DNA from: a virus
Lineage: Duplodnaviria > Caudoviricetes
Reading direction: 5' to 3' (one strand)
IMG/VR virus record: IMGVR_UViG_2913584337_000003
Location: 3,126 to 67,125 of that record
DNA length: 64,000 nt
Part shown: one piece after another, positions 4,545-61,761 of the stretch
Numbering within the stretch: the first letter of the stretch is position 1
Layout of the letters: each line of letters opens with the position of its first letter
Program-made: the position numbers and the translations under genes
Notes under the pieces: model-generated
What the model saw: only the letters and a program-made list of their open reading frames with translations
What the model was told of the DNA's origin: nothing
The model's database searches: none

Positions 4545-4935
4545 GCCGGAGTACACCTTCACGGACCTTGTACACATCGCGGGCTACGGGTCACGCATAT
4601 TTAAAATCGAATCATACCGCGTCGAGCAATGTTTCTCGCCCAGCGAAGAATGGACGGATATTGTGTACGACTTAATCGATACGGAAACGGGGGCTTACGT
4701 TGAGTGTGACGAAGAGGATCTGCGGCTGGCTGGCGGTAGCAGCGTGCGCAAACCCATGGCAAGGGAATTAAGCGGGCAGGCGAGAAAGGATCGTGCGAAG
4801 CGAGTGGATGCGTTGTTGGACGAAATGAATGATGCGAAAGTGATGGTCGAGATGTTTCCGGAGGATGGCGAATTCAAGGCGAAGGTTGAGTATTTGACGA
4901 TTAAGTTGGCTGAGGTTACGGCGGAGTGGACTTAA
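4537..4935 (+). CDS. hypothetical protein (SH3-like N-terminus)
   Basis: 132 aa, YTFTDLVHIAGY ... VDALLDEMND. Confidence 0.65.
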   Translation: MNKPEYTFTDLVHIAGYGSRIFKIESYRVEQCFSPSEEWTDIVYDLIDTETGAYVECDEEDLRLAGGSSVRKPMARELSGQARKDRAKRVDALLDEMNDAKVMVEMFPEDGEFKAKVEYLTIKLAEVTAEWT

Positions 4936-4943
4936 ATTGCGAA
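4920..4943 (+). repeat. putative cassette recombination site A1
   Basis: GGCGGAGTG-GACTTA-AATTGCGAA at a GC-to-AT boundary; right arm matches consensus, left arm degenerate. Confidence 0.5.
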
Positions 4944-4960
4944 GTAAATGAGGTGAGAAA

Positions 4961-5119
4961 ATGCGGATATTTAAAGTTATCAACGAAAATAATTTTTATC
5001 ATGGTAAAGAAGGCATCTTGGTTAGAGAGAATGCTCATGACTTGATTTTAACAATACATGTAGGTGATTGGAATTCAGATTTGCCTTTTGATAAATCAGA
5101 AGTTGAAGAAATTATATAG
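4961..5119 (+). CDS. small AT-rich hypothetical protein (52 aa), cassette gene
   Basis: RBS GAGGTG; MRIFKVINENNFYHGKEGILVRENAHDLILTIHVGDWNSDLPFDKSEVEEII*; not in ORF track. Confidence 0.7.
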   Translation: MRIFKVINENNFYHGKEGILVRENAHDLILTIHVGDWNSDLPFDKSEVEEII

Positions 5120-5120
5120 T

Positions 5121-5144
5121 GTCGCAATTCGAATAAAATACGAC
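5121..5144 (+). repeat. putative cassette recombination site A2
   Basis: GTCGCAATT-CGAATA-AAATACGAC, 7/9 inverted arms, 1 nt after a stop codon. Confidence 0.7.
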
Positions 5145-5190
5145 TTTGACAAAAATGCGTAATAAACAAAGTTCTTGGGAGGGTGTAATA

Positions 5191-5736
5191 ATGGATAAAA
5201 AGTATAAACAAATTGAGTTTTTTGCAGGAAACACTGTAGAACAGGCTGTTAGTGAATTGTTGAGTTATAGAGAGAAAGGGAAATTAGCTTGTGGTGAATT
5301 TAATGGAGTTACATTGTATTCAGATACGGTAACGATGGATTCAGCATATCAAAGGATAACTGGTAAAACGAAAGCAGAATTTGATAAAGAACAACAAGAA
5401 TGGAGAGAAGACTATAAAAGAAAAGAACAGGAACATAAAGAAAGAATCCCGGAGTTATCAAAGGTTTGGAAGGGAAAAGGTAGAGAGATTCTAGCAGAGG
5501 ACAAGTGGAATCTTTGGGATGATATTGTCCCGATTCGGTTGGGTGACTTATATCGCGGTATGGAATTAGGAAATTGCTTGGATATAGTAAAGATTTTAAA
5601 TAACAACGGCACACTTGATGAAGCGAAAGAGGTAATCGAGAATCAAGGTCACTCAGGGATGTCATTCGGATTGGTTTGTGCGATGATCAAAGAATTTTGT
5701 GATAGAGGTAATGAATTCGTTAATTATGTTAAATAA
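5191..5736 (+). CDS. AT-rich hypothetical protein, cassette gene
   Basis: RBS GGAGGG supports ATG 5191; C-terminal GHSGMSF motif. Confidence 0.75.
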   Translation: MDKKYKQIEFFAGNTVEQAVSELLSYREKGKLACGEFNGVTLYSDTVTMDSAYQRITGKTKAEFDKEQQEWREDYKRKEQEHKERIPELSKVWKGKGREILAEDKWNLWDDIVPIRLGDLYRGMELGNCLDIVKILNNNGTLDEAKEVIENQGHSGMSFGLVCAMIKEFCDRGNEFVNYVK

Positions 5737-5740
5737 CTAC

Positions 5741-5765
5741 TGAACAATTCGATTCAAACAGCGCA
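5741..5765 (+). repeat. putative cassette recombination site A3
   Basis: TGAACAATT-CGATTC-AAACAGCGCA (one extra nt), 4 nt after a stop codon. Confidence 0.6.
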
Positions 5766-5830
5766 ATAATCGAAAATAACAGTTGTAAGCTGCCAGCGAA
5801 GAATTATATATTACGAAAGGAGCTGACGCA

Positions 5831-7201
5831 ATGGAATACGGAAATCTTCTATTAAGTAAGGTAATCGACGAAAATAACGTACAGGCGTTAACCAAATATG
5901 GAATCACGGCGAAGGACTTACCGACGGAGGGTGATAGGCAGACCCTCCGTTTCATCACCGACTATGCGGAGGCTAACCGCGGGCAGGCGCCATCGTACGC
6001 CGTAGTTACTGAGGAGTGTCCGACATTTATTTATACACCGCAAGTCGGAGACAGTTACGAGTACATGACGAAGGTAATAAAGGAATATAGCGCGAAGTTG
6101 CAGTTTATGGAGATAATAAATCCGCCAACAAACGCTAAAGGTGGCGATACTCGCTCACTATTCGAAAAGAAATTCGAGGAGCTTGACGGAAATAAATTCA
6201 CCGACTGGTTGATTTCGGAGGCCGAAAGGATTAAAATAAATACGAACACCAGTTCTAAAGTAGGTACGGACATAAAGGCGGACGCATCTTCTTTTCTGGA
6301 CGAATACCGCAAACGTAAATCAGGCGAGTCGTTCAAGGTTTGGCACAGCAAGTTTCCGGCCATTAACGAAGCAACCGGTGGATACCTCAGCGGAAATATG
6401 TATACATGGTACGGTCGTCCAGGCCGCGGTAAATCAATTATCACCTCAGAGGAAGCGATTGAGTCGGCGTTTCAAGGCGCAAATGTGCTCGGATGGATAA
6501 TGGAAATGGCTAAATTCGAATGGATGGCGCGAGCCTACTCGACTATTTCGGCAAGGTCCGGTATTGTTTCCGCTACTATAGACGGAGTAGATTACGAGGC
6601 AGGCTTCGAGAATAAGGCATTATTAATGGGAAGACTATCGGAGGATTTCGAGGCAGGCTTCGAGCAATTCCTAGCGACTATTAACGAAATAGTGCCGGGC
6701 AATATTACTATCCGAGCAGCAGACGACGTAGACTTTTATAGTCGCGGATTGAAGCAATTAGAGGCGGACATCATTCAGACGAAAGCGGACGTAGTTTTAG
6801 TTGATCCGATTTACCTTATGGATTACGAAGCGAATACTTCGAAAGTTGCTGGAGGTGATGTGGCGAACACGTCGAAAAAGATTCGTAGACTAGCCGGATT
6901 AACGAAAACAGTTATTCACATCGTTACACAGGCGGAAGAGGTTCGCGACGATACAGACGAAGAAGGTAATCGCGAGTTAAGACCGCCGAAACGTGCGGAA
7001 ATCAAGAAAACGAAGGCAGTCCTTGAAGATGCTGCGAACACTTTCGGCATAGATACGCTGGACGGCGTCGGCATAATTGAAATTGGCAAAGGCAGGAATG
7101 GCGGAGAAGGTATGCAGGTTGAAGTTCTGTATCTACCTAACATCGGAATCGTTCGCGAAATGGAGACCGGCATGGCCGCTGCGGCTCAATTCGATTTCTA
7201 G
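5831..7201 (+). CDS. DnaB-like replicative helicase
   Basis: Walker A GRPGRGKS, MEM motif, VLVDPIYLM, KGRNGGEG. Confidence 0.9.
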   Translation: MEYGNLLLSKVIDENNVQALTKYGITAKDLPTEGDRQTLRFITDYAEANRGQAPSYAVVTEECPTFIYTPQVGDSYEYMTKVIKEYSAKLQFMEIINPPTNAKGGDTRSLFEKKFEELDGNKFTDWLISEAERIKINTNTSSKVGTDIKADASSFLDEYRKRKSGESFKVWHSKFPAINEATGGYLSGNMYTWYGRPGRGKSIITSEEAIESAFQGANVLGWIMEMAKFEWMARAYSTISARSGIVSATIDGVDYEAGFENKALLMGRLSEDFEAGFEQFLATINEIVPGNITIRAADDVDFYSRGLKQLEADIIQTKADVVLVDPIYLMDYEANTSKVAGGDVANTSKKIRRLAGLTKTVIHIVTQAEEVRDDTDEEGNRELRPPKRAEIKKTKAVLEDAANTFGIDTLDGVGIIEIGKGRNGGEGMQVEVLYLPNIGIVREMETGMAAAAQFDF

Positions 7202-8313: not shown

Positions 8314-8541
8314 TTAACGGTCTGCTTCGAGCCATTCGTATAAGTCATCGATTCGACAGTTAAATTCGTCGGCGATGACTTTTGCTGTGGAGACAAGCAT
8401 GATATTACGTAAATTTTCGTAGTCGGAAATCGTTGACTTCGACATGCCGACGCGATCAGCGAGTTGTTGCTGCGTCAGACCGCGCGATTCACGTAATTCT
8501 CGAAGCAAACACCGTTCGACTACAGCAGACGTGGTGCTCAC
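8314..8541 (-). CDS. XRE-family HTH regulator
   Basis: LRELRESRGLTQQQLADRVGMSKSTISDYEN; start uncertain (possibly ACG at 8532). Confidence 0.85.
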   Translation of the reverse strand: MSTTSAVVERCLLRELRESRGLTQQQLADRVGMSKSTISDYENLRNIMLVSTAKVIADEFNCRIDDLYEWLEADR

Positions 8542-8826: not shown

Positions 8827-8884
8827 CCTATTATAACAGAAAAACGGAAAAAAATTACACTGTTTTTTGAAAGGGGCAAAATCA

Positions 8885-10099
8885 GTGCATAGCGTACTTA
8901 CCAAGGTTTTAGATATGATTGAAAGCCGAGATGACTTGAACTTTAACACAGTCGCTGGAATGATTGGATGTACTAAACAAGAACTTTCGAACATGAGGAC
9001 GAATGGGTGTAGCTTTAGAAAATTACTCAGACTATCTTATGTACTAACTCCCGAAAATCAAAAAGAGGTAATGTACGACTGGTGTATGAAATTAAACACT
9101 ACTGAGGCAATCAAACAAGGGTTTGAATACGCTTCAATCACACGAAATAAAAAGCTACTTCATGGCTTGCTTGAAACACACAAAGAGGACAGAGGGGAAC
9201 TTAGTAAGTACGTTGCAGTATATACAGTGTTACTCGATTTTTACAATAACAAAATATCGGCAGGAGACATCTTGGATAGGATAGAAAAAGTTGGAAAAAC
9301 AAAAGGAGAGTTATTGATCCTTGTGGAAATTATTAAGTGTTACAACTATTATTTCGCCGGTAAGTATCACTTAATGTTGGAGACAGCAAAAGAGGCAGAG
9401 AAATCAGTATACAAGCTAGGAAGTCGACAGCAATTCATCAAAGAGTGTTACATACACAGGCTTGCAGAGGTTCTAGGTCACGTTAGTCTTTTGTTAAACG
9501 ACAGAGAAACAGCTAGGTATTATGCAAATTTAATAATTAACGCAGATATTTGCGCGAAAACTGTTTCCGGCGCCTATTATATAGTGGGCATGACGTTCTT
9601 GAACGAGGGTTCTATAAAAGCAGTTGAATACCTTCGTACAAGATACGAAATTGCCTGCACAATCGGAGAGCAGGATATAGAGAGCAATGCTCGACGAGAT
9701 CTCGATTTCGCTAAAATTTACCTTAACATCCAACTAGATGCAGATGCTGATCCGTTACTCCGCAAACTACAAGAGCAAAAGGCAAGCGAATTCGAATTAA
9801 ACACGATAAAGGAGGCGACTTACTGCGAGGGAGATGACGATTTACTAATATTAATACGCGCAGCAGCGAAAAAATCGATTACGAAAATGAATGAATGTAG
9901 AAAGAAGTTTTTCAATGACGCTAAATATTTTTTCGCCAGTCTTGCGGCACAGGAGGTAAAGAACCTGGGCGAGCAATCAGCTATGATCGACGAGTTTATC
10001 GAATTTAAAATTAACACAAAAGGGGATGTTTTATTTGAAGAAAATTTTATTGGCAGTTTTACTAGTTATCACGATGGTGGTTGGACCCTTAGCGCTTAA
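8885..10099 (+). CDS. aimR: arbitrium receptor AimR (RRNPP/TPR family)
   Basis: ~400 aa helical protein with N-terminal HTH, WCMKLNTTEAIKQGFEYA segment, C-terminal KYFFASLAAQEVKNLGE; followed by a secreted pro-peptide gene; GTG 8885 with RBS AAGGGG. Confidence 0.85.
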   Translation: MHSVLTKVLDMIESRDDLNFNTVAGMIGCTKQELSNMRTNGCSFRKLLRLSYVLTPENQKEVMYDWCMKLNTTEAIKQGFEYASITRNKKLLHGLLETHKEDRGELSKYVAVYTVLLDFYNNKISAGDILDRIEKVGKTKGELLILVEIIKCYNYYFAGKYHLMLETAKEAEKSVYKLGSRQQFIKECYIHRLAEVLGHVSLLLNDRETARYYANLIINADICAKTVSGAYYIVGMTFLNEGSIKAVEYLRTRYEIACTIGEQDIESNARRDLDFAKIYLNIQLDADADPLLRKLQEQKASEFELNTIKEATYCEGDDDLLILIRAAAKKSITKMNECRKKFFNDAKYFFASLAAQEVKNLGEQSAMIDEFIEFKINTKGDVLFEENFIGSFTSYHDGGWTLSA

Positions 10100-10154
10100 T
10101 GCTGTAGCAGAAGAATCAGGGCCAGTCGCATTGCCGGAAAAAGTTGGCGGCTGA
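10035..10154 (+). CDS. aimP: arbitrium pro-peptide AimP (39 aa)
   Basis: RBS AGGGG, TTG start, MKKILLAVLLVITMVVGPLALNAVAEESGPVALPEKVGG*: Sec signal peptide plus short C-terminal peptide; overlaps the aimR 3' end; not in ORF track. Confidence 0.85.
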   Translation: MKKILLAVLLVITMVVGPLALNAVAEESGPVALPEKVGG

Positions 10155-24512: not shown

Positions 24513-24524
24513 GGAGTGAATTTC

Positions 24525-24683
24525 TTGAAAAAATGGTTTTGGACGACTTTGCTGATAACACTAATCCCTTTGTGGGTTGTGCTGTATTTGATTGGCATGA
24601 TGGGCATGGCATCCTCTTATCTTTGGGAAAATGTTTACCATTCGGTGTACAGACGAGCAGGAAGTCCCCTTGATAAAAAATAG
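24525..24683 (+). CDS. small membrane protein (52 aa), cassette gene
   Basis: RBS AAGGAG, TTG, MKKWFWTTLLITLIPLWVVLYLIGMMGMASSYLWENV...; not in ORF track. Confidence 0.7.
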   Translation: MKKWFWTTLLITLIPLWVVLYLIGMMGMASSYLWENVYHSVYRRAGSPLDKK

Positions 24684-24690
24684 TAGTTAT

Positions 24691-24714
24691 GACGCACTTC
24701 GATCCAACCGCGCA
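24691..24714 (+). repeat. putative cassette recombination site E2
   Basis: GACGCACTT-CGATCC-AACCGCGCA just after the stop codon. Confidence 0.65.
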
Positions 24715-29866: not shown

Positions 29867-30871
29867 ATGGAAAAGAAATTACTTGGCGAATTGGAATTAA
29901 ATCGAATTTATCAGCGCGATTGTATCGAAGGAATGCGACTGATTCCGGACGATAGCGTCAATTTAATCGTGATTGATCCGCCCTATAATATCGGGAAGGA
30001 CTCGCGGTGGGACAAATGGAAGTCAGTCGAAGGGTACGTCGATTTTATGAGTACGGTATTTAAAGAGTGTGAGCGTGTACTAAAGCCAAATGGGTCGTTC
30101 TACTTCTTCCATAATGATATGGTGCAGGTTCGTAAATTAATGGACGCAATTGACGACGAGACTTCTTTCGTATATAAAAATTTCATCCTATGGAATAAGC
30201 GTTACAACGGAAGCCCTCGCAAATACTACTTTGACAACGTAATTAAAACAGAGTCCAGTCGAAGTTACCGACCACTGACAGAGTACTGCTTATTCTATAC
30301 ATTTCAGAAAGAACTTACAGACGTTACACACGATGTAAATAAATTTGAGAGTCTTCGAAGTTACTTCAGAGAATTTCTAGCTGCGTTAGGGATTACGAAA
30401 AAGGCTCTGATGGAAAATGTTGGTCAACGAGCAGACCATTGCTTCCGTTGTAGTTCGAGCCAGTGGGATTTACCTACACAAGAAACATATGAATCATTGT
30501 TGGAGCTTCCGCGCGATAATTCATTTGTAGCAGTGTCGTACGCAGAATTGACGGGTATCTACGAAGGGATGCGTCAGCAATACGAGAGTGAACGTTACAC
30601 CTATAACCACCAAAAAACACATCACGACGTATGGGATTATGAGGTGGCGCCTAAACTCGGGCACTGCACACCTAAGCCTTTGGATCTTATAGAAAATATT
30701 ATACTCCATTCGTCAAATCCAGGTGACGTAGTACTTGATTGCTTCATGGGCAGCGGAACCACAGCGGTAGCCTCCGCCCGAACAGGACGTAACTTTATCG
30801 GGTTTGAACGCGAGCCGGAATACGTAGAAATCACAAACAAACGCCTTGACAACGAACTGGAGGCGAACTGA
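29867..30871 (+). CDS. orphan DNA methyltransferase (N6A/N4C, beta class)
   Basis: DPPY motif IV before FMGSGTT motif I; HCTPKP. Confidence 0.9.
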   Translation: MEKKLLGELELNRIYQRDCIEGMRLIPDDSVNLIVIDPPYNIGKDSRWDKWKSVEGYVDFMSTVFKECERVLKPNGSFYFFHNDMVQVRKLMDAIDDETSFVYKNFILWNKRYNGSPRKYYFDNVIKTESSRSYRPLTEYCLFYTFQKELTDVTHDVNKFESLRSYFREFLAALGITKKALMENVGQRADHCFRCSSSQWDLPTQETYESLLELPRDNSFVAVSYAELTGIYEGMRQQYESERYTYNHQKTHHDVWDYEVAPKLGHCTPKPLDLIENIILHSSNPGDVVLDCFMGSGTTAVASARTGRNFIGFEREPEYVEITNKRLDNELEAN

Positions 30872-31269
30872 TGGGCGCAGTAAAACGGGATATGCACATA
30901 GGCGAACGACGCCTAGCCGAACGTTATGCACTCGACAGTACAGCGGGTGTCAAACTATTACTTTCGGAGTACCACGCTTTGATAGGTAGGCAGTATCAAG
31001 GCGACTATGACGCGGTTGTTCTATTAACCGACATGGCTACGGCAATAGATCAGGCAGGCTTAACGGACCGGCAGCGTCAGGCACTCACGCTAGTCTACGT
31101 GGATGACCTAACGCAGGCTAAGGCGGGCGAGGCGATGGGCGGACTGGCGAAGGACGCCGTTAATCATTTACTCGACAGGGCAATCGAAGCAATATCGGAG
31201 GTTTATTGGTATTGGTCAAGGCATGACGAAGGATATACGATTTTATCGACGAAAGGGGAATCGGAATGA
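30871..31269 (+). CDS. sigma-70 region 4-like DNA-binding protein
   Basis: LTDRQRQALTLVYVDDLTQAKAGEAMG HTH. Confidence 0.75.
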   Translation: MGAVKRDMHIGERRLAERYALDSTAGVKLLLSEYHALIGRQYQGDYDAVVLLTDMATAIDQAGLTDRQRQALTLVYVDDLTQAKAGEAMGGLAKDAVNHLLDRAIEAISEVYWYWSRHDEGYTILSTKGESE

Positions 31270-31532
31270 TTAAGGGATTATCGAAATATCAGTCGCAAAT
31301 AGTTTCCGCATTAAGAGAGGACGGCGTTTATCTTTGGACGAATGAGGGTCCCGGATATCGCGCATGGATTGGTGATAAAAACGGAGTAATCATCAATTAT
31401 GTGCGGGTTCGCTCGGCTGAAGCGCTCGTAAATACAGGCGTGATTAAATTTGTAGACGGTAATTATCGCCAAGGATTATTCAAATATACGTTAAAGGTGG
31501 CGGAATATTACAACAGGAAAGAGGCGGAATAA
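31266..31532 (+). CDS. hypothetical protein
   Basis: 88 aa, coupled start. Confidence 0.6.
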   Translation: MIKGLSKYQSQIVSALREDGVYLWTNEGPGYRAWIGDKNGVIINYVRVRSAEALVNTGVIKFVDGNYRQGLFKYTLKVAEYYNRKEAE

Positions 31533-31735
31533 TGGGCGAACAAGCTTACGTAAATACTGACCGTGAAATTTGGCGTGAAACTAAAGACGATTATTATGCG
31601 CCGAGTATTCACGTAACGGCCGACGGTAAAATCGGGATAGATATTGGCGGATATGTCTTCGTAAAAGATGTGCGCGATTGGCATAAATTAGCGGATAAGT
31701 GCAGCTGTTACGAGAAAGCATTGGAGGCGGAGTAA
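31532..31735 (+). CDS. hypothetical protein
   Basis: 67 aa, coupled start. Confidence 0.65.
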   Translation: MGEQAYVNTDREIWRETKDDYYAPSIHVTADGKIGIDIGGYVFVKDVRDWHKLADKCSCYEKALEAE

Positions 31736-32217
31736 TGGCGGACTATAAAACGAAACTACACGAAGCAATAACGGAATTACAACAAGCGACCAAGCGCGGT
31801 GAAATGCCGCGAGAGGTTCGCATAGTTAAAATCGAGGCGCTGGTCGAGGATTACTTCGCAAAGGCTGGCGAAATGCCGGACAGCACGGCGTTGGAGCGGT
31901 TGGCTGATTTGTGTTTGCATGAGGAGTTGACGGACACTAACGAGCACAAAATATCGCAGACTGAATATCCGTTTTTGAGCGAGCGCCAGTTTGATCGCCG
32001 TGATAATCGTGAGGTTAAATCAACGACTGGTATGGACGGAAATGCTGCGGATGGCCAAAAGCACGGCGTGCCGACGCGGAGAAAACGAACTGATTATGAA
32101 AATAGATTCGTAGATAAGAAGTCCCGAATTCGTAATAAGGAACGGAAACATAGGTACGTAGAGTTTACGAAAGTACAGCCGGTTGTTGTCTACAAATTAG
32201 GCGACAGCCGCGCTTAA
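31735..32217 (+). CDS. conserved phage hypothetical protein
   Basis: LERLADLCLHEELTD...EYPFLSERQ; RBS GGAGG, TAATG coupling. Confidence 0.75.
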   Translation: MADYKTKLHEAITELQQATKRGEMPREVRIVKIEALVEDYFAKAGEMPDSTALERLADLCLHEELTDTNEHKISQTEYPFLSERQFDRRDNREVKSTTGMDGNAADGQKHGVPTRRKRTDYENRFVDKKSRIRNKERKHRYVEFTKVQPVVVYKLGDSRA

Positions 32218-32228
32218 TAGAGAATGGA

Positions 32229-32399
32229 CATCAACTTTTACGCTGTTTTGTGTTCTTACGTTAAGAGTGGCATCAACAATGGGCGCCTCAGTTGTGTATA
32301 CGTTAAGAGGGGGCAAAACGTCAACTTTTCGGAACTAGTACGGACTGTAGGATGAAGAGACGTCAACTTTTGGCACGTTTCGTATCTATGTCTTAAGAA
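32229..32399 (+). repeat. four tandem bipartite repeats (candidate late promoters or operator array)
   Basis: CRTCAAC-N21-(TACGT)TAAGAG-like units at 32229, 32271, 32319, 32361. Confidence 0.65.
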
Positions 32400-32430
32400 G
32401 AAACGATTTCGCGGGCGCTTCGGCGCTTGC

Positions 32431-32454
32431 TGAATAACTGACAAAAAATCTGCA
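32431..32454 (+). repeat. putative cassette recombination site C1
   Basis: TGAATAACT-GACAAA-AAATCTGCA at a GC-to-AT boundary, directly after a TTCG hairpin. Confidence 0.55.
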
Positions 32455-32473
32455 TTAAAAAGGAGAAAGAAAA

Positions 32474-32686
32474 ATGAATAAAAATCAAATTGAAGCAATG
32501 AAAGAATCATTAAAAATTCAAGGTTATAGTGGCAATTGGAATTATGACGAGTACATGTTCGGAATATATAACGGTATGGAATTGATGGTAGCAATTGCAG
32601 AAAACAGAGAACCTGTCTACAAAGAAAAACCTAAGAGATGGCTGAAAGATAGAAAAGTTGATTCCAAACCAATCAGTATGTCTTAG
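32474..32686 (+). CDS. AT-rich hypothetical protein, cassette gene
   Basis: 70 aa, RBS AAGGAG, GNWNYDEYMFGIYNGMEL. Confidence 0.75.
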   Translation: MNKNQIEAMKESLKIQGYSGNWNYDEYMFGIYNGMELMVAIAENREPVYKEKPKRWLKDRKVDSKPISMS

Positions 32687-32703
32687 TCCGATTCTAAAGC
32701 GCA
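32680..32703 (+). repeat. putative cassette recombination site C2
   Basis: GTCTTAGTC-CGATTC-TAAAGCGCA overlapping the stop; same spacer as A3. Confidence 0.55.
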
Positions 32704-32722
32704 ATAAAAGGAGGAACAAACA

Positions 32723-32872
32723 ATGAAGTGTGAACATCATTACGAAGTTTGTTGTTATAATTCTTCAATTGTAATTGCAGAATGCACCAAATGCGGTGAC
32801 GAAAAGGAATACGACTTTGATGATTATTTTTTGAATTATGGATTCCCTACTCTTTCAGATGAAATAGAATAG
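32723..32872 (+). CDS. small Cys/His-rich protein (49 aa), cassette gene
   Basis: RBS AAGGAGG; MKCEHHYEVCCYNSSIVIAECTKCGDEKE...; not in ORF track. Confidence 0.7.
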   Translation: MKCEHHYEVCCYNSSIVIAECTKCGDEKEYDFDDYFLNYGFPTLSDEIE

Positions 32873-32873
32873 T

Positions 32874-32897
32874 ACACCAGTTAGAACAAATTACGAA
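32874..32897 (+). repeat. putative cassette recombination site C3
   Basis: ACACCAGTT-AGAACA-AATTACGAA, 1 nt after the stop. Confidence 0.7.
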
Positions 32898-32914
32898 GGA
32901 AAGGGCGGTTTGAA

Positions 32915-33040
32915 ATGCATGATACTCTTTATTTTCAGGTGAAAAGATTAAAAAGACACTTAAATATTGTATTAGGTAGGATGGGAATTTTTAAAATCGC
33001 AGAATGGACTATTAGAAAGCTATCAAGAATTATTAAGTAA
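32915..33040 (+). CDS. small basic amphipathic protein (41 aa), cassette gene
   Basis: MHDTLYFQVKRLKRHLNIVLGRMGIFKIAEWTIRKLSRIIK*; not in ORF track. Confidence 0.6.
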   Translation: MHDTLYFQVKRLKRHLNIVLGRMGIFKIAEWTIRKLSRIIK

Positions 33041-33064
33041 TACACACTTATGTGGAAATGTGCA
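33041..33064 (+). repeat. putative cassette recombination site C4
   Basis: TACACACTT-ATGTGG-AAATGTGCA, 7/9 inverted arms, abuts the stop. Confidence 0.65.
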
Positions 33065-33109
33065 ATTGCAAACGTTGGAAAAGTCATATTCAAGAAAGGA
33101 GAATTAAAA

Positions 33110-33394
33110 ATGACAGTACACGGTTTTATGGAAGATTGGGATGGAGAAATTGTACTAAGTGATATTCATAACTTTAAAGATGAAAATGACTTCTCTGAAC
33201 AAGCTGAAAAATATGTTAAGGAAACAAGAGGATATAGAGTGCCATTATTTCCTCCTGTTGTTATGGATATTGTGTACAACGGTGAAAACGAAGAATGTTG
33301 GTCAAGCAAAAATTATGCCCTAAAAACAGGCTTTGAAGGAGAAATAATTACGGTTTATAGGTCGACTTTAGATTATGACAATGCAGAAGGGTAA
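33110..33394 (+). CDS. AT-rich acidic hypothetical protein, cassette gene
   Basis: RBS AAGGAG supports ATG 33110. Confidence 0.7.
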   Translation: MTVHGFMEDWDGEIVLSDIHNFKDENDFSEQAEKYVKETRGYRVPLFPPVVMDIVYNGENEECWSSKNYALKTGFEGEIITVYRSTLDYDNAEG

Positions 33395-33418
33395 TTCGCA
33401 CTTCGAACAAATTACGAA
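33395..33418 (+). repeat. putative cassette recombination site C5
   Basis: TTCGCACTT-CGAACA-AATTACGAA, 7/9 inverted arms, abuts the stop; last 14 nt identical to C3. Confidence 0.75.
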
Positions 33419-33426
33419 ACAACCAC

Positions 33427-33447
33427 GCTCGCTTCGGCGGGCTTTTT
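33427..33447 (+). terminator. rho-independent terminator
   Basis: GCTCGC-TTCG-GCGGGC-TTTTT. Confidence 0.75.
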
Positions 33448-33474
33448 AATTTTAAACGAAAAGGAGACGTTGGA

Positions 33475-33726
33475 GTGAATAAAGAGATTGCTAATTTAAT
33501 TATGGATTATGTGGCCGTTAGGGTAAACTTCAAATCAGTTAACAACGATAACATCGACAAGGTTGCTGGGAGGATATCAATCGAGTTTTGTAAAACGTAT
33601 AGTCCGCGGAAAAACTGGGGTGTGTCTCGAAAGGATATAAAAGCATTAATTATCGATATATTCCGCGCTGTTATGGAGGGTAGGCTGGTATTTGTTTTCG
33701 ACGAGGAGTGTGACGAAAATGAATAA
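33475..33726 (+). CDS. hypothetical protein
   Basis: 83 aa, RBS AAGGAG. Confidence 0.6.
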   Translation: MNKEIANLIMDYVAVRVNFKSVNNDNIDKVAGRISIEFCKTYSPRKNWGVSRKDIKALIIDIFRAVMEGRLVFVFDEECDENE

Positions 33727-34582
33727 GCGCCAACTAAACGAAAGCCTATCCAAACTAGTAAGCGGAGCGCCGCGAGGATCAATTACGCGCACCAACGGCA
33801 ATTATGGACGTGATGAAACCGGCAAGCCTTTCTTTATTCAATCAGTAGAGCAACGCGAAACAGTTAAGCGAATAATGAAGCAAAAAGGGGAAGGGCGCAA
33901 GGAGTCGTTCTTCTTCAGCGTAATCGAACGCATGCACTACGTTGCCAACGCACTTACACCGGCTCAATGCGGGTATCTGCTCGTATTAACTAGTCACGTC
34001 AATTGGAACGGACTCCTTGTACGATCCGAAAAGGACTCAACGCCATTAACGCCTGCCGAAATGCAAAAGGCGCTCAACCTTCCGAAATCCAAGCGCTCGA
34101 CCTTTACAGACTTCCTGGACGCTTGCTTAAACCACGGAATCATTAAAAAGAAAGACGACGGCTACTACGTCGAGAAAGGCTTTCATTTCCGAGGCAGAAC
34201 GGAAGGCGAGCGAGTGGTCCGCACCTATATTACGCAACTACGCGAAATGTATAAAGATGTCAGCGCTCACGATGTCGGGCTGCTTTACCGGCTGATTCCG
34301 TATATTCACGTTGACTCGAATATCCTTTGCGAAAACCCTAACGAAAAGGACGCGAGGGCAGTCGTAAAGCACAACCGTAAGTCACTGGCTGAAGCAATCG
34401 GAGTGACCCCGCAAGTTATATCAAGGGCAACAACGAGAATGATTTACGACGGGAAGTCGGTATTTGCGAAAGTGACGACGGCGACTGACGGCACGTTTTA
34501 TATGTTGAATCCGTCGATATTCCGCAGGGCTGACCGTGATGATTACGACGCAACAACGCGAGGGATATTCGGACTCCAATAA
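33719..34582 (+). CDS. plasmid-type replication initiator-like protein (tandem winged HTH)
   Basis: Two related HTH halves; GLLYRLIPYIH...YMLNPSIF resembles Bacillota Rep proteins; followed by iterons. Confidence 0.6.
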   Translation: MNKRQLNESLSKLVSGAPRGSITRTNGNYGRDETGKPFFIQSVEQRETVKRIMKQKGEGRKESFFFSVIERMHYVANALTPAQCGYLLVLTSHVNWNGLLVRSEKDSTPLTPAEMQKALNLPKSKRSTFTDFLDACLNHGIIKKKDDGYYVEKGFHFRGRTEGERVVRTYITQLREMYKDVSAHDVGLLYRLIPYIHVDSNILCENPNEKDARAVVKHNRKSLAEAIGVTPQVISRATTRMIYDGKSVFAKVTTATDGTFYMLNPSIFRRADRDDYDATTRGIFGLQ

Positions 34583-34720
34583 AAGTGTGTTTTCATTCGG
34601 ACACTTTCGCCTAAAAGTGTGTTTTCATTCGGACATCCGAAAAGTGGCTTCGAGCCTACAGCCGCAAGGGATACAGCCGTTTTTGGCTCGGGATTATATA
34701 TATTATATATATATAAATAC
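34580..34720. repeat. iterons plus AT-rich unwinding element (candidate origin)
   Basis: TAAAAGTGTGTTTTCATTCGGACA x2 (34580, 34612; 32-bp period) then a TA-rich run at ~34693-34719. Confidence 0.7.
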
Positions 34721-34987
34721 ACTACCCTGCGCCTTCATTCCTAAAGAACAGTCATTCGGCGCCATGATTATTTATTCTTTTAAATACCGACGTTAAAGGA
34801 TATGACAATATGGTAGGACGGCTCGCTTTTTGGGCCGGACTACAAGGTCTTGAAGTCGTAAGACTTCTCGCTAATCACTGCGTACATATATTCGTCAACA
34901 TTTACGCTGTTTCGCGGTATATAGTACGAAGAGATAATCGGACAATAGCGGACACCGAGTCCGACTAATCAAACGGAGGCGATAACG

Positions 34988-35377
34988 ATGGCAAAACGTA
35001 TACTCAACGAAAAACAATGGGCGGCTATTACGATATTATCGCAGCCTAAACGCGCAGGCATGACGTATGAGGAAGTGGCGAAAGAGGTAGGCGTTGCTAA
35101 GTCGACACTATTCGAGTGGAAGAAGCTGGACGAATTTAACGACGCTATCAAGAACGCAGTGGTGCGCAATACGACCGACAGGCTGCCGGACATGTTCGAT
35201 TCTATGATCGATAACATTATCGAGACAGGCAATGCGGCGGCTTTCCGCACAGTCGTACAGCTGCACGGCATGTTGACGGAGAAGGTCGAGGTAGCTAGCA
35301 AGGGGGATGCGGCAGATATCGACAGCATGAGGGCGGAGATTGAACGGATACGTGGCGGTGAGCGGTCCGATACGTAG
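34988..35377 (+). CDS. terminase small subunit (HTH type)
   Basis: LNEKQ..., EEVAKEVGVAKSTLFEWKK, GMLTEKVEV; position upstream of TerL. Confidence 0.75.
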   Translation: MAKRILNEKQWAAITILSQPKRAGMTYEEVAKEVGVAKSTLFEWKKLDEFNDAIKNAVVRNTTDRLPDMFDSMIDNIIETGNAAAFRTVVQLHGMLTEKVEVASKGDAADIDSMRAEIERIRGGERSDT

Positions 35378-36056: not shown

Positions 36057-36581
36057 TTACAAGCAAAGTGTTTCGTAAGTCTCATCGATTGTCCCTTGTG
36101 TGATCCCGATATATTTCAAGGTGTCGCGCTCGGTCGCGTGGTTTAACATACGCATGACCTGCGCAATGTCGCCGGTCTTCTTATATGTATGAAAGCCGGC
36201 TGTCTTCCTCAGCGAATGGCAGCCGATTTCAATATTAACGCCAGCACGATTGGCGGCTGCGTTCAACAAACGGTAAGCCTGCACACGACTAATCGCCTTG
36301 CCACCTTTTCGCGAAGGGAACAACGGCCCATCAGCCGGCGCTAACTCGTTAATAGCTTTGCGAGCAACGGCGTTAATCTTAATACGCTTAGACTTGCCGG
36401 TCTTGCCTTCATGTAGCGTAATATAATCGCCAGCAACATCGGTGGCAGTTAACGTAAGCAAGTCGCTAATCCTTAGCGCCGTATTAATGCCTAGCGTAAA
36501 TAGTAGGAGGTCGCGCCCGTGCATCGCCTTTTTCATACGGCTAATGTCGCGGATTGATTTAATCGGTTGGACTTCGTTCAC
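36057..36581 (-). CDS. short tyrosine recombinase (catalytic domain only)
   Basis: ALRISD (R), KTGK (K), HSLRK (HxxR), LNH (H), LKYIG (Y); 174 aa with no arm-binding domain. Confidence 0.9.
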   Translation of the reverse strand: MNEVQPIKSIRDISRMKKAMHGRDLLLFTLGINTALRISDLLTLTATDVAGDYITLHEGKTGKSKRIKINAVARKAINELAPADGPLFPSRKGGKAISRVQAYRLLNAAANRAGVNIEIGCHSLRKTAGFHTYKKTGDIAQVMRMLNHATERDTLKYIGITQGTIDETYETLCL

Positions 36582-36769
36582 GCTAAATCGCCTAAGTCCT
36601 CTACGAATTCTTTAAGCATTCTCACTTCGGCTTGCAGTACGTGCAATTGGATTGTTTCATTCGGAGCCATTTCGTAATCTAGGTTATTTTCTTTAGCTTG
36701 TAATTTTGAAAGTAGCGCTTCTTTTCGGCTCAACTTACTTTTATAGAATTCTAACGTTTCGTTAATCAT
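36578..36769 (-). CDS. small coiled-coil protein co-transcribed with the recombinase
   Basis: MINETLEFYKSK... 63 aa; RBS AAGGAG; stop overlaps the recombinase start. Confidence 0.65.
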   Translation of the reverse strand: MINETLEFYKSKLSRKEALLSKLQAKENNLDYEMAPNETIQLHVLQAEVRMLKEFVEDLGDLA

Positions 36770-36806
36770 TTTCGAATACAACTCCTTCAAATGTTTTGTT
36801 ACATTC

Positions 36807-36835
36807 ATAATAAACGATACATAAACGAAAGTCAA
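36807..36835 (-). promoter_or_regulatory. sigmaA promoter of the recombinase operon
   Basis: TTGACT-17-TATTAT. Confidence 0.7.
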
Positions 36836-37030
36836 ACGTAATCTAACGATATTTATGGACCACAGCGTCCAGCGCAACTGAGCGCAGTGTTACGGGGAAG
36901 ATTCGCAGTTTTGACCTGGAATTGAGCCGGTTAATAACCGAGCAAATGGGGCAAATCACAAACGATGTGGTTAATCGTTTTACATAGCGTCGATTTCTGG
37001 CGCAAATAAAACGAAAAGGAGGCGATTATT

Positions 37031-56340: not shown

Positions 56341-58311
56341 ATGAGTAGCGAAAAGACACCGAATTTAGGATTGCACAAATGGAAGTCGACGGATTACGTG
56401 CAGATGGTCGAGTTTAACGAGAATTTCGTGAAGCTTGACGAGAAGTCTGCGGAGGTTACCGAGAATTTCGCGAAGTTTGACGAGAAGACAGCAGAGTTCA
56501 ACGAGCAGTTAGCAGAAACAACGACAGGGCTTTCATTCATTCCAGCGCAGAATGTGGTTTTAAGTACGACAGCAGCGGGTGACCCTCGTTTTCTTGACAA
56601 TATCGGGGATGGATACCTCTATGGAAGTAACTCGCGTTCGTTATACCGAGCTACCTCCGAAAACGGTCCATGGACGTTAGTTAAAGCTTTTACTGTAAAT
56701 GACGCTATAAACGGCATACGTATGTTAGGCGACGGAGAAGTCTTGCTGATACGTTCGACAGATGGGTTATGGAAATCTACAGGGTGGGCAACTAATCCAC
56801 TTACAGCTACGTGGACGCAGGTGCTAGTCACTAACGGAAGAACAACTCAGTTTAGTATAGACGTTGATAAAGCTTCTGGATGGGTTTCAGCTACAACATA
56901 TATAAATGGAGATATGACAAACTCGCGATATGTTTGGTTATCGAGAAATAACGGAGTTACATTTACGCAGATATTTGACATGCTGGACTTTGAGCCAACT
57001 ATAGACAAATCGCACGCTCACATGCATCTTGCGGTATTAGATCCGTATTGGAATGCTGTCACACCGCGGATATGGATTAGTTATCACAAAACTGCGGATG
57101 ACCCGACAAATACTGCTGATCCTTTAAAACGAATTAAATACTCTGATGATGGGGGTCAAACGTGGGTTAGCTTTTCAAATTCGGGGTATCAGCCAGTGGT
57201 AGGAATAGCGACACCTGAAGGTATGCTCTTTGGTTCTGATGAAGATACCGTCGGAGTTTATGTTGTGAGGCGAACAGCAAACCCTGCAGATATGAAGTAC
57301 GAGCTTTTTTATGCAATTAGAGAAAATATAGACGGTATTTTCGGATGGGCAACTAAGGCGATCAAGGGTGCAAATGGAGCTTATCATATTGCTTTTAGAT
57401 CAAGTGTTGCGGGCTATCCTGGTCGTGTTATTACAAGTGATGGAAAGCGAATTGTGGAGACTTTAAAAATAACTCCTGCAACGCCAAATGATTCCGTAGA
57501 CCTTGTTGATATTGTTGAGTATAAAGGAAGGATTTTGGCAAACTATTACAATACATTTACTGGAGCAGGGACAGCCTACAAAATGATAGCAGATGTACCT
57601 GTTCGTGGAGTGCCTACATTTACGTCAGTAGGAGCATTAGAGGGTGGCATTGCGGGGCCATTAGCTACTTCAGCAGGTATAAAATCTAAAGCTGATATGC
57701 GCGGTACTGCAATAGGCTCCAATAGTTATGCTGCATTACGAGGGACAGTTTTGGGCGAACAGTCGAGTGCCGGTGCAGAAGGGGTGGCGATTGGATCAGT
57801 TGCAATAGTCACAGGAAATGGGACTTCAATAGGAAAATCAGCAACTGCCGAAACCGGTGTGTCAATAGGGCGAAATAGTAGTTCAGCCAGCGATGGTACT
57901 TCTGTGGGACCGTCAGCGAAATCGATAGCGGAATCAGTTGCGCTAGGGTCTTTTGCAGATGCGTCAGCCTCTCAAACAACAGCCATCGGTCGGTTAGCGG
58001 CAGCGAACAATGCTAATGCCGTTGCAATTGGGGCACTGGCTAATGCAAACGCCCCAGGTTCTGTTGCTATTGGGAGAAATGCTAAATCGTCGCATGACTT
58101 TTCTGTAGCGCTTGGGTATGGGGTTCAAACAACAGCGCCCAATCAGTTCAAAATCGGAAATAAACATATTGAACTAGACGTAATATCAAACCCATCAACG
58201 TTCCCTGTAAACGGACTAAGGTTCTTCGCAAGAAAAAATACTTCAGGAAAAGTAGAGTTGTGTGTACTGTTCCCGTCAGGATCTCCGGCAGTCGTTGCAA
58301 CAGAACCTTAA
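56341..58311 (+). CDS. tail fibre / receptor-binding protein 2 (BNR propeller plus YadA-head-like repeats)
   Basis: N-terminal KTPNLGLHKW anchor, Asp-box SRNNGVTF/YSDDGGQTW, repeated xAIGxxAxA. Confidence 0.8.
   Translation: MSSEKTPNLGLHKWKSTDYVQMVEFNENFVKLDEKSAEVTENFAKFDEKTAEFNEQLAETTTGLSFIPAQNVVLSTTAAGDPRFLDNIGDGYLYGSNSRSLYRATSENGPWTLVKAFTVNDAINGIRMLGDGEVLLIRSTDGLWKSTGWATNPLTATWTQVLVTNGRTTQFSIDVDKASGWVSATTYINGDMTNSRYVWLSRNNGVTFTQIFDMLDFEPTIDKSHAHMHLAVLDPYWNAVTPRIWISYHKTADDPTNTADPLKRIKYSDDGGQTWVSFSNSGYQPVVGIATPEGMLFGSDEDTVGVYVVRRTANPADMKYELFYAIRENIDGIFGWATKAIKGANGAYHIAFRSSVAGYPGRVITSDGKRIVETLKITPATPNDSVDLVDIVEYKGRILANYYNTFTGAGTAYKMIADVPVRGVPTFTSVGALEGGIAGPLATSAGIKSKADMRGTAIGSNSYAALRGTVLGEQSSAGAEGVAIGSVAIVTGNGTSIGKSATAETGVSIGRNSSSASDGTSVGPSAKSIAESVALGSFADASASQTTAIGRLAAANNANAVAIGALANANAPGSVAIGRNAKSSHDFSVALGYGVQTTAPNQFKIGNKHIELDVISNPSTFPVNGLRFFARKNTSGKVELCVLFPSGSPAVVATEP
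56502..56525 (+). repeat. putative cassette recombination site D1 (in frame inside the fibre gene)
   Basis: CGAGCAGTT-AGCAGA-AACAACGAC encoding EQLAETT at the anchor/variable-domain junction. Confidence 0.6.
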
Positions 58312-58398
58312 TTCAAAAATTTTGAGTTACTTGTAGAATTTTCAAGTCTATTGTTTTAAGATTAATATATCCTTAACACTAGATTGTGAGGTTTTGCA

Positions 58399-59448
58399 TT
58401 GAGCAACCTAGGAAGATTGAATGAATTAGACGCGCTGAGAGGGTTAGCTGCGCTTGCGGTAGTTTTATATCACTATACAACAAGATATGAGGCCCTTTTT
58501 GGACATGCAAAGACCTCATATTTTGGCTTTAATTATGGTAATTTAGGTGTAAATCTGTTTTTCATGATCAGTGGGTTTGTTATTTTCATGACAATTACCA
58601 GGACGAATAATGTAACTGATTTTGCTAAGAAAAGGATTATAAGATTATATCCATCATATATCGTAGCGGTTATAATCACTTTTGTTGCAGTAAAGCTTTA
58701 TGATTTAGGCGGTAGAGGAGTAACTTTGTTTGATGGTGTTTTTAATCTGACAATGCTTCAAGGGTTTTTACCTGGCGTCATAGACCACGTTGATGGTGCT
58801 TACTGGAGCTTAAAAGTGGAGCTGACCTTCTATATTATTATTGGAGTTATTCTGTTTTTTGGTTTAAAGCAACGAGTGTATTTACTTTCGATATTGTGGT
58901 TAATTAGCACATCGATATTTCAAGTTTTAGATGCGCTTACTGGAGGCTATATAATTACTAAAGCGTTAGTTTTTTACTCTATTGCTGATTATGCTCACTT
59001 GTTTATCGCAGGGATAATGTTTTATTTATTAAAAACTAAAAATCAACTAAAATATCATTTGTTAATTGGTCTTTGTTTAATCTATGAATTCGCGCTCAAT
59101 GACTTGAAAGCAAGTTTATTTGTAACAATGTTTTTCGGTGTTTTCTATCTCTTGATAAATAGCAAGTTGTCACTACTTAATAATAAAGTCCTAACGTTTT
59201 TAGGAGCTATTTCATATAGTTTATATCTGATTCACCAAAACATTGGTTATATCATTATCAATTTCTTAGAGAAAAACGGTATGGTTCAAGAATTTTATTT
59301 GATAATACCTGTAAGTGTATCTATCATCTTAGCAACATTAATTACTTACTATATAGAAAAACCAGCAATAAGGATATTCAAGAATCGAATGCAAAAAAGG
59401 AAAACACTGAAGCTGAAAAAGGATGGGTTATCTGCTAAATCATCATAG
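58399..59448 (+). CDS. acyltransferase family 3 (OafA/YrhL-like) membrane protein
   Basis: LDALRGLA, GVNLFFMISGF, RIIRLYP, WSLKVE, SYSLYLIH; very AT-rich. Confidence 0.9.
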   Translation: MSNLGRLNELDALRGLAALAVVLYHYTTRYEALFGHAKTSYFGFNYGNLGVNLFFMISGFVIFMTITRTNNVTDFAKKRIIRLYPSYIVAVIITFVAVKLYDLGGRGVTLFDGVFNLTMLQGFLPGVIDHVDGAYWSLKVELTFYIIIGVILFFGLKQRVYLLSILWLISTSIFQVLDALTGGYIITKALVFYSIADYAHLFIAGIMFYLLKTKNQLKYHLLIGLCLIYEFALNDLKASLFVTMFFGVFYLLINSKLSLLNNKVLTFLGAISYSLYLIHQNIGYIIINFLEKNGMVQEFYLIIPVSVSIILATLITYYIEKPAIRIFKNRMQKRKTLKLKKDGLSAKSS

Positions 59449-59465
59449 TTGGAATAAACTACGCA
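59442..59465 (+). repeat. putative cassette recombination site D2
   Basis: ATCATAGTT-GGAATA-AACTACGCA overlapping the acyltransferase stop, at the AT-to-GC boundary. Confidence 0.65.
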
Positions 59466-59489
59466 GTAGTTAGACACGCACCACAACGC

Positions 59490-59518
59490 AAGGCGGCCGC
59501 CATTCGGTCGCCTTTTTT
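59490..59518 (+). terminator. rho-independent terminator
   Basis: AAGGCGGCCG-CCATT-CGGTCGCCTT-TTTT. Confidence 0.8.
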
Positions 59519-61627: not shown

Positions 61628-61761
61628 TTTACTATTCCGAATAAATTTCCTCGGCGGAACATCGGTCGGAACAACGCAAATCCAACTATGGCGGCGCTTG
61701 GCGCCCATTTCGACCGTACTGTCCGTGCGGGACTATCTTACGATATAAAGGGGTGGCGACT

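Follow-up and report, generated by a model that had tools for sequence, protein, structure and literature searches.

A stack of four small accessory genes in a variable slot of a Bacillales myophage, and a short motif near stop codons

Integrons are recognized by an integrase (IntI), an attI site, a promoter Pc and attC sites, which are imperfect inverted repeats with RYYYAAC and GTTRRRY cores, and integron cassettes carry their sites wherever they are found. Morons, a concept from work of the Juhala and Hendrix type, are extra genes of temperate phages that have their own promoter and terminator and are expressed autonomously from the prophage. Here we compare with such systems an array of four short AT-rich open reading frames (ORFs) at positions 32411-33447 of a 64,000-nucleotide (nt) stretch of Caudoviricetes DNA (the window; IMG/VR record IMGVR_UViG_2913584337_000003, positions 3,126 to 67,125). 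The window is the reverse strand of positions 30-64029 of contig C1 (67,207 bp), part of a genome of 4.24 Mb with 43% GC. The original prediction, made from the letters alone, read the array as an integron-like stack in which five sites alternate with four genes behind a shared promoter. We interpret it as a stack of four unrelated accessory genes that was built by recombination in a hypervariable slot; the phage is a myophage of Bacillales and probably temperate. We give this reading a probability of about 0.7. Three of the junctions (C2, C3 and C5) carry a motif of about 20 nt that is tied to stop codons and is also found in a second prophage of the same genome; their membership in this motif is new here.

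The stoperators of Cluster A mycobacteriophages are numerous asymmetric sites, oriented with transcription and mostly intergenic, that are bound by the immunity repressor and halt elongation. They are orientation-specific regulatory motifs of mycobacteriophages (PMC9283540). The start-associated sequences (SAS) of Cluster K mycobacteriophages and their extended forms (ESAS) are short motifs that occur in one orientation in short intergenic gaps, upstream of start codons (PMC3203893). In T4-type phages, PeSL regulatory cassettes (PeSLs) place a strong sigma-70-like promoter and a stem-loop terminator between the ORFs of hyperplastic regions, where recombination shuffles modules (PMC2839356, PMC4122927). 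Relaxed homologous recombination is known between phages and resident prophages (PMC3945230). Among the literature on these analogous systems there was no paper on a stop-associated motif, and no search was aimed at the motif itself.

The array and the slot that holds it

The four ORFs are present on the plus strand as originally described: ORF1 (32474-32686, 70 amino acids (aa)), ORF2 (32723-32872, 49 aa), ORF3 (32915-33040, 41 aa), and ORF4 (33110-33394, 94 aa). Each has its own Shine-Dalgarno sequence (SD), which is GGAG-type and lies 8-9 nt upstream of the start; the SD of ORF3 is weaker. The 94-aa version of ORF4 begins at the start that is common to its homologues, and an upstream ATG at 33050 is AGG in the second genomic copy. 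The GC content is 34% over 32362-33602 versus 47% for the window, and this is the second-longest AT-rich island of the window.

To the left of the array (30871-32217, plus strand) are a sigma factor gene (30871-31269), two small ORFs and a conserved phrog_13088 gene (31735-32217). To the right (33475-34582, plus strand), an 83-aa ORF (33475-33726) overlaps the start of a conserved DNA-binding gene (33719-34582, phrog_9501). The relatives of these flanks among phage records form two groups, Paenibacillus larvae Halcyonevirus phages and four Bacillus phages. The phrog_13088 gene has a best-place identity of 37-44% to its phage relatives, and the phrog_9501 gene is 37-41% identical in the relatives studied and 24-28% in weaker matches. 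Closer relatives of phrog_9501 are encoded on two IMG/VR contigs (58-61%), and more distant ones turned up in an order-level sample of 401 genomes (21 of the 400 others, best 56%). At the DNA level, megablast of 31000-35000 against phages gave no match, and a genus-level search returned the genome's own two copies only.

We compared 21 loci and scored the 11 in which the DNA examined includes phrog_9501 together with a gene of the left flank (phrog_13088 or the sigma factor); the other ten (L017 and L019-L027) have phrog_9501 alone within 1.5 kb. The slot is empty in six of the 11 (268TH002, phi18-2, L015, L016, L009, and L008, with 14, 65, 88, 167, 228 and about 190-260 nt). Phage C7Cdelta has a 349-nt spacer followed by a conserved small ORF, and four loci hold other cargo. 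The Tripp slot contains its own promoter (TTGACG-17-TATAAT), a 77-aa ORF that we read as HicA-like, and a HicB-like antitoxin gene. Halcyone has two small ORFs behind a promoter similar to that of Tripp, L014 (G374:C2) has ORFs of 107, 57 and 114 aa and a tRNA-Trp (CCA) at 2765-2839, and L018 has a 175-aa ORF. No homologue of ORF1-ORF4 was found at any of the 21 loci searched. The locus is thus variable among related phages, as the original prediction would have it. The four ORFs do not occur together at any of the loci examined and are absent from all 11 readable slots.

In two of the cargo-free loci, L008 (4092-4706) and L016 (552-1223), a single ORF of 204-223 aa has a phrog_13088-like N-terminus together with a stretch resembling sigma region 4, which suggests that two genes found apart in the phage studied here are fused or rearranged there.

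The ORFs also behave as independent modules, which had been proposed as well. Homologues of each are found in different phages, and at the loci examined no two of them are neighbors. ORF1 matches phrog_23796 (E 1.5e-13), and tblastn finds it in 21 phage records, 19 of them from Bacillus phages and mostly SPO1-like, with 40-48% identity; its counterpart in SPO1 is the C-terminal part of gp34.22. ORF2 is rich in cysteines (C3, C10, C11, C21, and C24), a pattern from which it may be a small zinc-binding protein, and has a weak match to phrog_7696 (E 8.7e-4). Over 32722-32871, nearly the exact extent of the ORF, it is 76.7% identical in nucleotides to a 49-aa coding sequence of Bacillus phage SPbetaL8, with no relationship between the flanking sequences. 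A word-based protein search returned ORF2 itself alone.

ORF3 encodes a small basic protein without a PHROG match. The word-based search found only ORF3 itself and its 95% copy; an exhaustive phmmer search found five proteins at E ≤ 1e-3, three of which are homologues of 40-48 aa with 47-53% identity and a conserved N-terminal half. Further relatives are encoded on two IMG/VR contigs (46% and 40% identity). We considered whether the ORF3 module is a small RNA or type I toxin locus and rejected this: it is unstructured on both strands (module RNA z +2.1), the minus-strand ORF lacks an SD, and ORF3 has homologues at the protein level.

ORF4 is predicted to be an acidic alpha/beta protein and matches phrog_30136 (E 1.6e-24). 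Its relatives comprise 13 proteins, and the named ones are from Bacillaceae; homologues occur in phages Tavor_SA and vB_BcoS-136 and in Metabacillus, there within a run of other small ORFs. The AlphaFold model of ORF4 has a pLDDT of 90.7 and a pTM of 0.79. Fold searches returned nothing convincing with Foldseek against the PDB (best E 0.6), a wide VIA-align search (best Z 4.9, rmsd 2.7 over 52 residues) or BFVD (best E 0.9), and these searches exclude no family. As a single IMG/VR query ORF4 had no confirmed match. The best Protein Atlas scores for ORF4 and ORF1 (0.80-0.82) are to unnamed clusters and gave no lead. The four ORFs have no match in Pfam or NCBIfam, and PADLOC had no match to them or to their neighbors. 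The anti-defense role suggested for proteins of this kind is pure conjecture.

Between the left flank and ORF1 are four tandem promoter-like units, U1-U4 (32224-32407, plus strand), which are the fourfold repeat block noted originally. Their cores, CRTCAACWWTK, start at 32229, 32271, 32319, and 32361 and are thus spaced by 42, 48 and 42 nt. A TATAC-like hexamer comes 17-18 nt after each core, with (T)AAGAG behind it. The core has six matches in the window versus 0.62 expected, and none of 100 shuffles reaches six. A fifth unit, U5 (34888-34939, plus strand), lies about 50 nt upstream of the start codon of terS (34988), with its core about 95 nt before terS, and its first 25 nt are closely similar to unit 1. 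U1-U4 and U5 are intergenic and oriented with the genes; the sixth core match is on the minus strand at 11601. Similar units occur directly after the phrog_13088-like gene of cargo-free relatives, two in L009 and one in L008. We infer that U1-U5 are promoters of the phage's own sigma factor.

Past the units is a GC-rich UUCG hairpin without a U-run (32411-32431, plus strand; -17.8 kcal/mol, z -2.41, a fold equalled by 4 of 200 shuffles). It was part of the original description, was not called by the terminator scan, and may be a 5' leader or stabilizer hairpin. An intrinsic terminator closes the array (33427-33448, plus strand; hairpin at 33427-33442 followed by a T-run), and it is the only plus-strand terminator in 31500-35200. 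It had been counted as part of the array, and we assign it to the phage backbone because the cargo-free L008 has a homologous hairpin, the T-run and the following GCGAAAAGGGGACG just before phrog_9501. Tripp and Halcyone also have a terminator directly before the same gene pair. An Rfam search of 31500-35200 at E ≤ 1 gave no match.

A pattern scan found no sigma-70-like plus-strand promoter inside the array, in line with the lack of an obvious promoter that had been noted for the ORFs. Because there is no internal sigma-70-like promoter or terminator, the simplest reading is one transcript from the units to 33448, which makes a shared upstream promoter plausible; the four ORFs would most likely be co-transcribed, with a stop at 33448. 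Cargo-free relatives hold units and a leader at this place, and L008 holds the terminator too, so the ancestral order would have been promoter unit(s), a short leader, the terminator and the regulator-like gene, with cargo inserted into the leader.

A terminator immediately upstream of the phrog_9501 gene pair is seen in this phage (33427-33474) and in three relatives (L008, L001, and L002). Regulated read-through may therefore govern expression of the conserved DNA-binding gene.

A stop-associated element and a module shared by two prophages

Five sites had been described, at 32431 (C1), 32680 (C2), 32874 (C3), 33041 (C4), and 33395 (C5). The general anatomy of the array holds, and five copies of one site do not: C2, C3 and C5 belong to one loose motif family, and C1 and C4 are outside it. 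The likeness of C3 and C5 is as noted, with 14 exact bases and 18 of 20 overall; an exact repeat of this length occurs in only 10 of 1000 dinucleotide shuffles of the region. Among the pairwise comparisons of the sites only C3-C5 exceeds all shuffles (0 of 300), and the likeness of C1 to C2 and to C4 is confined to the SD stretch. The RNA folding of C2, C3, and C4 is at the level of shuffles (z +0.87, +1.34, and +0.48).

The 17-mer core of the motif, TTCGAAYAAATTRCGAA, has 13 matches in the window at up to three mismatches, six of them intergenic and seven inside ORFs. Controls give 1.6 (dinucleotide shuffles), 0.68 (500 permuted motifs) and 2.0-2.2 (Markov orders 3-5), and none reaches 13. 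Without the two defining copies 11 matches are left. The density of the core is 13.3 per 64 kb on the phage contig versus 1.15 genome-wide, and the enrichment of the element in this phage is about 5-fold. Judged from these counts, the element is real.

Alignment of the intergenic copies with the look-alikes C2 and 5745 gives a family of about 20 nt, yAnTyCGAwynAAnnnrCGmA. A position weight matrix (PWM) and an nhmmer profile built from the family found further copies at 24695 in the window and at 145902 and 151484 on contig C7, which carries the second prophage. New PWM matches of at least 18 bits number five in the whole genome, of which three are in the two phage regions.

Within the array, the C2 variant TAGTCCGATTCTAAAGCGCA (32684-32706, plus strand, 18.9 bits) overlaps the ORF1 stop codon, the C3 copy CAGTTAGAACAAATTACGAA (32878-32897, plus strand) lies 5 nt past the ORF2 stop, and the C5 copy CACTTCGAACAAATTACGAA (33399-33418, plus strand) lies 4 nt past the ORF4 stop. 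Outside the array, the copy at 5125-5144 (plus strand) is 5 nt past the stop of a 52-aa AT-rich ORF (4961-5119) that also has a partial copy before it (4927-4943). A variant copy (5745-5768) follows a 196-aa ORF. The copy at 24695-24714 (plus strand) is 11 nt past the stop of a 55-aa membrane-like ORF (24516-24683) and is followed by an SD. The copy at 59446-59465 (plus strand) overlaps the stop of an AT-rich O-acetyltransferase gene (58399-59448), with a terminator-like hairpin after it.

All eight listed window copies are on the gene strand. Seven of these eight, and all five copies of the C7 prophage, start between -3 and +11 nt after the stop of a co-oriented ORF, and the gap from stop to element is 4-5 nt in eight of the 12 stop-associated copies. 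The next start lies 1, 17, 19 or more nt from the element, or is absent; the C5 and 59446 copies precede terminators. The element comes after AT-rich cargo, namely ORF1, ORF2, ORF4, the O-acetyltransferase gene and, in the 4900-5884 island, the ORFs of 52 and 196 aa, and also after the ordinary small gene 24516-24683. In phage relatives the element is at the control level, except for four loose forward copies in one of them.

Three other candidates at the junctions were dropped. The word AGTCCGATTC as a separate junction word occurs eight times in the genome versus 8.1 expected and is retained only within the aligned variant element. The CGCTTCGGCG common to the two hairpins was not retained as a target duplication, since a 10-mer match arises by chance in 1.5 kb and other 10-mer families are present too. 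An 18/23 likeness of the end of the phrog_13088 gene to C5 was set aside as a short two-copy match.

A module of 210 bp around ORF3 (32881-33090) is 96% identical to positions 154884-155093 of contig C7, in a different and more AT-rich prophage of the same genome. It comprises the C3 motif, the ORF3 SD, ORF3 and 50 nt past its stop. On C7 the module has a 142-aa regulator-like ORF, which we read as ArpU-like without a family scan, and a 39-aa ORF to the left, and a 58-aa ORF and terS to the right; a provirus contig in IMG/VR has the same arrangement. The left edge of the module is the element: the upstream genes differ, 14 of 17 motif positions agree, and identity is complete over the 70 nt that follow. 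At the right edge the similarity ends abruptly, directly before the SD of the next gene, with no element and no homology beyond. We take the module as direct evidence, at the level of sequence, that two phages of one host, otherwise unrelated, recently exchanged one small gene. The element does not appear to be an integral part of the ORF3 gene, a possibility that we dropped as it is missing upstream of the 46% and 40% homologues.

The shared module resembles the products of relaxed recombination between phages and prophages (PMC3945230) in that a near-identical segment is present in two unrelated phages and one edge lies in diverged homology (14/17). It differs in that the other edge is without homology.

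Near the small-ORF array of the C7 prophage there is a tRNA-like stretch (L007, 2090-2160) with a GGTTCGATTCC T-arm, which was not called by ARAGORN.

How the locus compares and how else it may be read

In the mechanism that we propose, a permissive slot between the sigma-factor module and the conserved DNA-binding gene upstream of the terminase genes would have received AT-rich genes, inserted in the leader between the four tandem units and the backbone terminator. The genes would have been gained piecemeal by recombination with other Bacillaceae phages, and the ORF3 module would have been exchanged recently with the second prophage of the same cell. All four would be read as one transcript from the units that ends at 33448. 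If the units are promoters of the phage sigma factor, the cargo would be made in lytic development and not from the silent prophage; its place inside a promoter-to-terminator leader before a regulator-like gene likewise leads us to expect expression with the late or middle program of the phage. Such expression would narrow the roles of the cargo to host takeover or counter-defense. The element at C2, C3, and C5 could have acted as a short homology patch for relaxed recombination between co-resident phages, because it lies at the left edge of the exchanged module and brackets ORF3-ORF4 and the 52-aa ORF. We think that a short homology patch for exchange is the most likely role of the element, perhaps with a regulatory signal as well.

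Our preferred explanation is phage mosaicism of the moron or hyperplastic-region kind, in a form that lacks a promoter or terminator of its own. As with morons, genes of foreign composition (34% versus 47% GC) lie between backbone genes that neighbor each other in relatives, six of the 11 scored loci have an empty slot, and the same slot in Tripp and Halcyone has cargo with its own sigma-A-type promoter and a terminator. Unlike morons, the array has no sigma-70-like promoter of its own and uses the terminator of the backbone, as judged from sequence-pattern scans, and its four unrelated genes stand behind phage-type promoter-like units inside a leader that is short in cargo-free relatives. A modular picture as originally drawn, with a promoter that is plausibly shared, is supported by the independent homologues, the variable locus, the absence of an internal sigma-70-like promoter or terminator and the motif common to some junctions.

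The integron mechanism that went with this picture, whereby attC-like sites behind a common promoter would receive promoterless cassettes through a site-specific recombinase, is scarcely credible here. The array does share with mobile integrons a stack of genes that have their own SDs and no recognizable promoter, behind a putative common promoter region, together with variable gene content; three of its junctions have a motif in common, and the same genome region contains a tyrosine recombinase gene. However, there is no IntI, no attI and no attC structure: neither strand of 32200-33500 contains a GTTRRRY or RYYYAAC core or an attC-type pair, and the inner junctions form no hairpin (z +0.5 to +1.3). 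The only tyrosine recombinase of the window is 174 aa, scores 31.5 bits against the integron-integrase model TIGR02249 (cutoff 265), and sits 2.6 kb downstream of the array beyond terS, not divergent from it; no copy of the element adjoins its gene. Homologues of the cassettes, which the original prediction expected to carry the same flanking sites, lack them in the case of ORF1, ORF2, ORF4, and the distant ORF3 homologues. The element is kept only beside the 96% ORF3 copy, and the Metabacillus ORF4 homologue has an 11-nt upstream half-match. The element also follows ordinary genes outside any array. From the missing IntI, the missing attC and the cassette homologues without sites, we place the array outside the integron family. 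Equally improbable is that the phage lineage inherited the four ORFs vertically as an old operon, or that they are not real genes. Tight packing, the strand shared with the backbone and the near-empty word-based searches with ORF2 and ORF3 would suit this, but none of the 11 relatives with a readable slot has the ORFs, their GC content is 13 points under that of the backbone, and all four have homologues elsewhere.

For the element, the fixed strand and the fixed distance to the stop fit a regulatory signal equally well. It could be bound by a protein and, like a stoperator, block or tune elongation, or it could act in the RNA on processing or on re-initiation at the next gene, and its place at the edge of the exchanged module would then be a by-product of its intergenic position; we regard this as possible but rather unlikely. 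The strand-specific placement and the 4-5 nt gap in eight of 12 copies speak for it, as do copies after genes that are not AT-rich (24695), loose copies enriched throughout the phage and inside genes, and a copy at 11692 in the gap between two minus-strand ORFs, in an AT-rich stretch beside the AimR-like and helix-turn-helix (HTH) genes described below. There is also the precedent of orientation-specific intergenic motifs with regulatory roles in mycobacteriophages (PMC9283540; PMC3203893). Like stoperators, the element has many oriented copies over the genome, with all eight listed copies on the gene strand, seven just after stops, and three types of null exceeded; unlike them, it is linked to no repressor, with candidate regulators named by family only (the Xre-like HTH gene 8314-8541, the AimR-like gene 8867-10099 and phrog_9501), and it is also present in an unrelated prophage of the same host. 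Like the SAS (PMC3203893), it is a short conserved motif in one orientation in intergenic gaps across a phage genome, but it is fixed to the upstream stop (-3 to +11 nt) and variable in distance to the next start. Against a regulatory role are the lack of an identified binding protein, a core that is weakly palindromic (TTCG-N9-CGAA) and folds poorly as RNA, the control-level counts in the phage relatives and the distant ORF3 homologues without the element. A process like that of the PeSLs, in which recombination between elements routinely excises and inserts cassettes, possibly as mini-circles, and so rebuilds the array, is doubtful. C3 and C5 are direct repeats that bracket ORF3-ORF4, the 52-aa ORF lies between a partial and a full copy, the shared module begins at an element, and a short repeated motif separates small ORFan genes in a variable region, as in T4-type phages (PMC2839356, PMC4122927). 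But the element is about 20 nt, tied to stop codons, in a Bacillales phage and without promoter or terminator, unlike PeSLs as those papers outline them. As for end points at the element, the left edge of the module has it and the right edge does not, and the nearest relatives are too distant for mapping insertions and deletions. No variant genome without an element-bounded segment was seen. Among sequencing datasets, none of RNA contained the stretch, and the two of DNA that did, which may be the source of the window, are contigs with all sampled words. We would likewise give only slim odds to the idea that the element is the crossover site of a cassette exchange common to unrelated phages of one host, by which element-bounded genes (ORF3-ORF4, the 52-aa ORF) move between co-resident phages. 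If true, it would make this a phage cassette stack, with an integron-like outcome reached through short oriented homology patches and a phage recombinase, not through IntI and attC.

Several observations weigh against a recombination-built stack with the element as a homology patch. The seven core matches inside ORFs, out of 13, are on either strand and not stop-associated, and two entries in the list of junctions (5745, 32684) were picked by eye. The motif carries little information, with 18 PWM matches of at least 14 bits in the reversed genome versus 24 in the real one. In IMG/VR, the exact 17-mer core occurs in 10 stretches, which is the chance level, and just one of them, in a provirus like the C7 prophage, has a homologous context. 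The crossover at the right edge of the module was not mediated by the element, because the element is missing there. No relative above 56-61% protein identity was found, so stepwise gain and loss of single genes is not directly seen. Phased binding sites of a DNA-binding protein would also fit the 42/48/42 spacing of the units.

Taken alone, the array is ordinary phage mosaicism, in which small accessory genes gather in a permissive slot. Its value rests mainly on the element common to two phages and on the clean example of a single-gene exchange. If the element is a recombination patch, it would be a Gram-positive counterpart of the PeSLs and a handle on the movement of small ORFan genes between phages; if it is regulatory, it would represent a new class of stop-associated signal.

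Other features of the phage

The window comes from a Bacillales myophage of about 67 kb that is probably temperate. By PHROG scans it encodes a helicase loader, a DnaB-like helicase, a primase, a DNA polymerase, a ribonucleotide reductase and a thymidylate synthase, two DNA methyltransferases and the small sigma factor (30871-31269). Packaging and structural genes include terS (34988-35377), terL, and genes for portal, head, sheath, baseplate and endolysin. Based on these annotations, the predicted gene set of a tailed phage is complete. The ends of contig C1 have no terminal overlap, and the phage may be integrated, linear or a plasmid-prophage.

The AimR-like regulator (8867-10099) matches PF22871 (E 6e-28). 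We regard the phage as temperate because this gene, the Xre-like HTH gene and a short tyrosine recombinase gene occur alongside the phage genes. The recombinase (36057-36581, minus strand, 174 aa) consists of the catalytic domain only and matches phrog_216 (E 4.8e-50). A 99-aa ORF without a family match precedes and overlaps it (36057-36877 for both, minus strand), and the two lie between terS and terL; they may be a split or frameshifted integrase.

A 42-aa ORF (10026-10154) overlaps the end of the AimR-like gene, and the two form an arbitrium-like pair (8867-10154). We take this ORF to be an AimP candidate, presumably a signal-peptide protein by its appearance, with a C-terminus (...PEKVGG) as in AimP pro-peptides.

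Between phrog_9501 and terS (34585-34720) there is a direct repeat, AAAAGTGTGTTTTCATTCGGACA, in two copies, followed by a TA-rich run, tatatatattatatatatataaata; together they may be a packaging or replication site. An AT-rich island at 58215-59492 (33% GC) carries the O-acetyltransferase gene (58399-59448, phrog_3333), a candidate surface-modifying conversion gene. Near the contig end, the genome encodes an FtsK/SpoIIIE-like gene (61753-63075, phrog_1358, E 3.4e-99).

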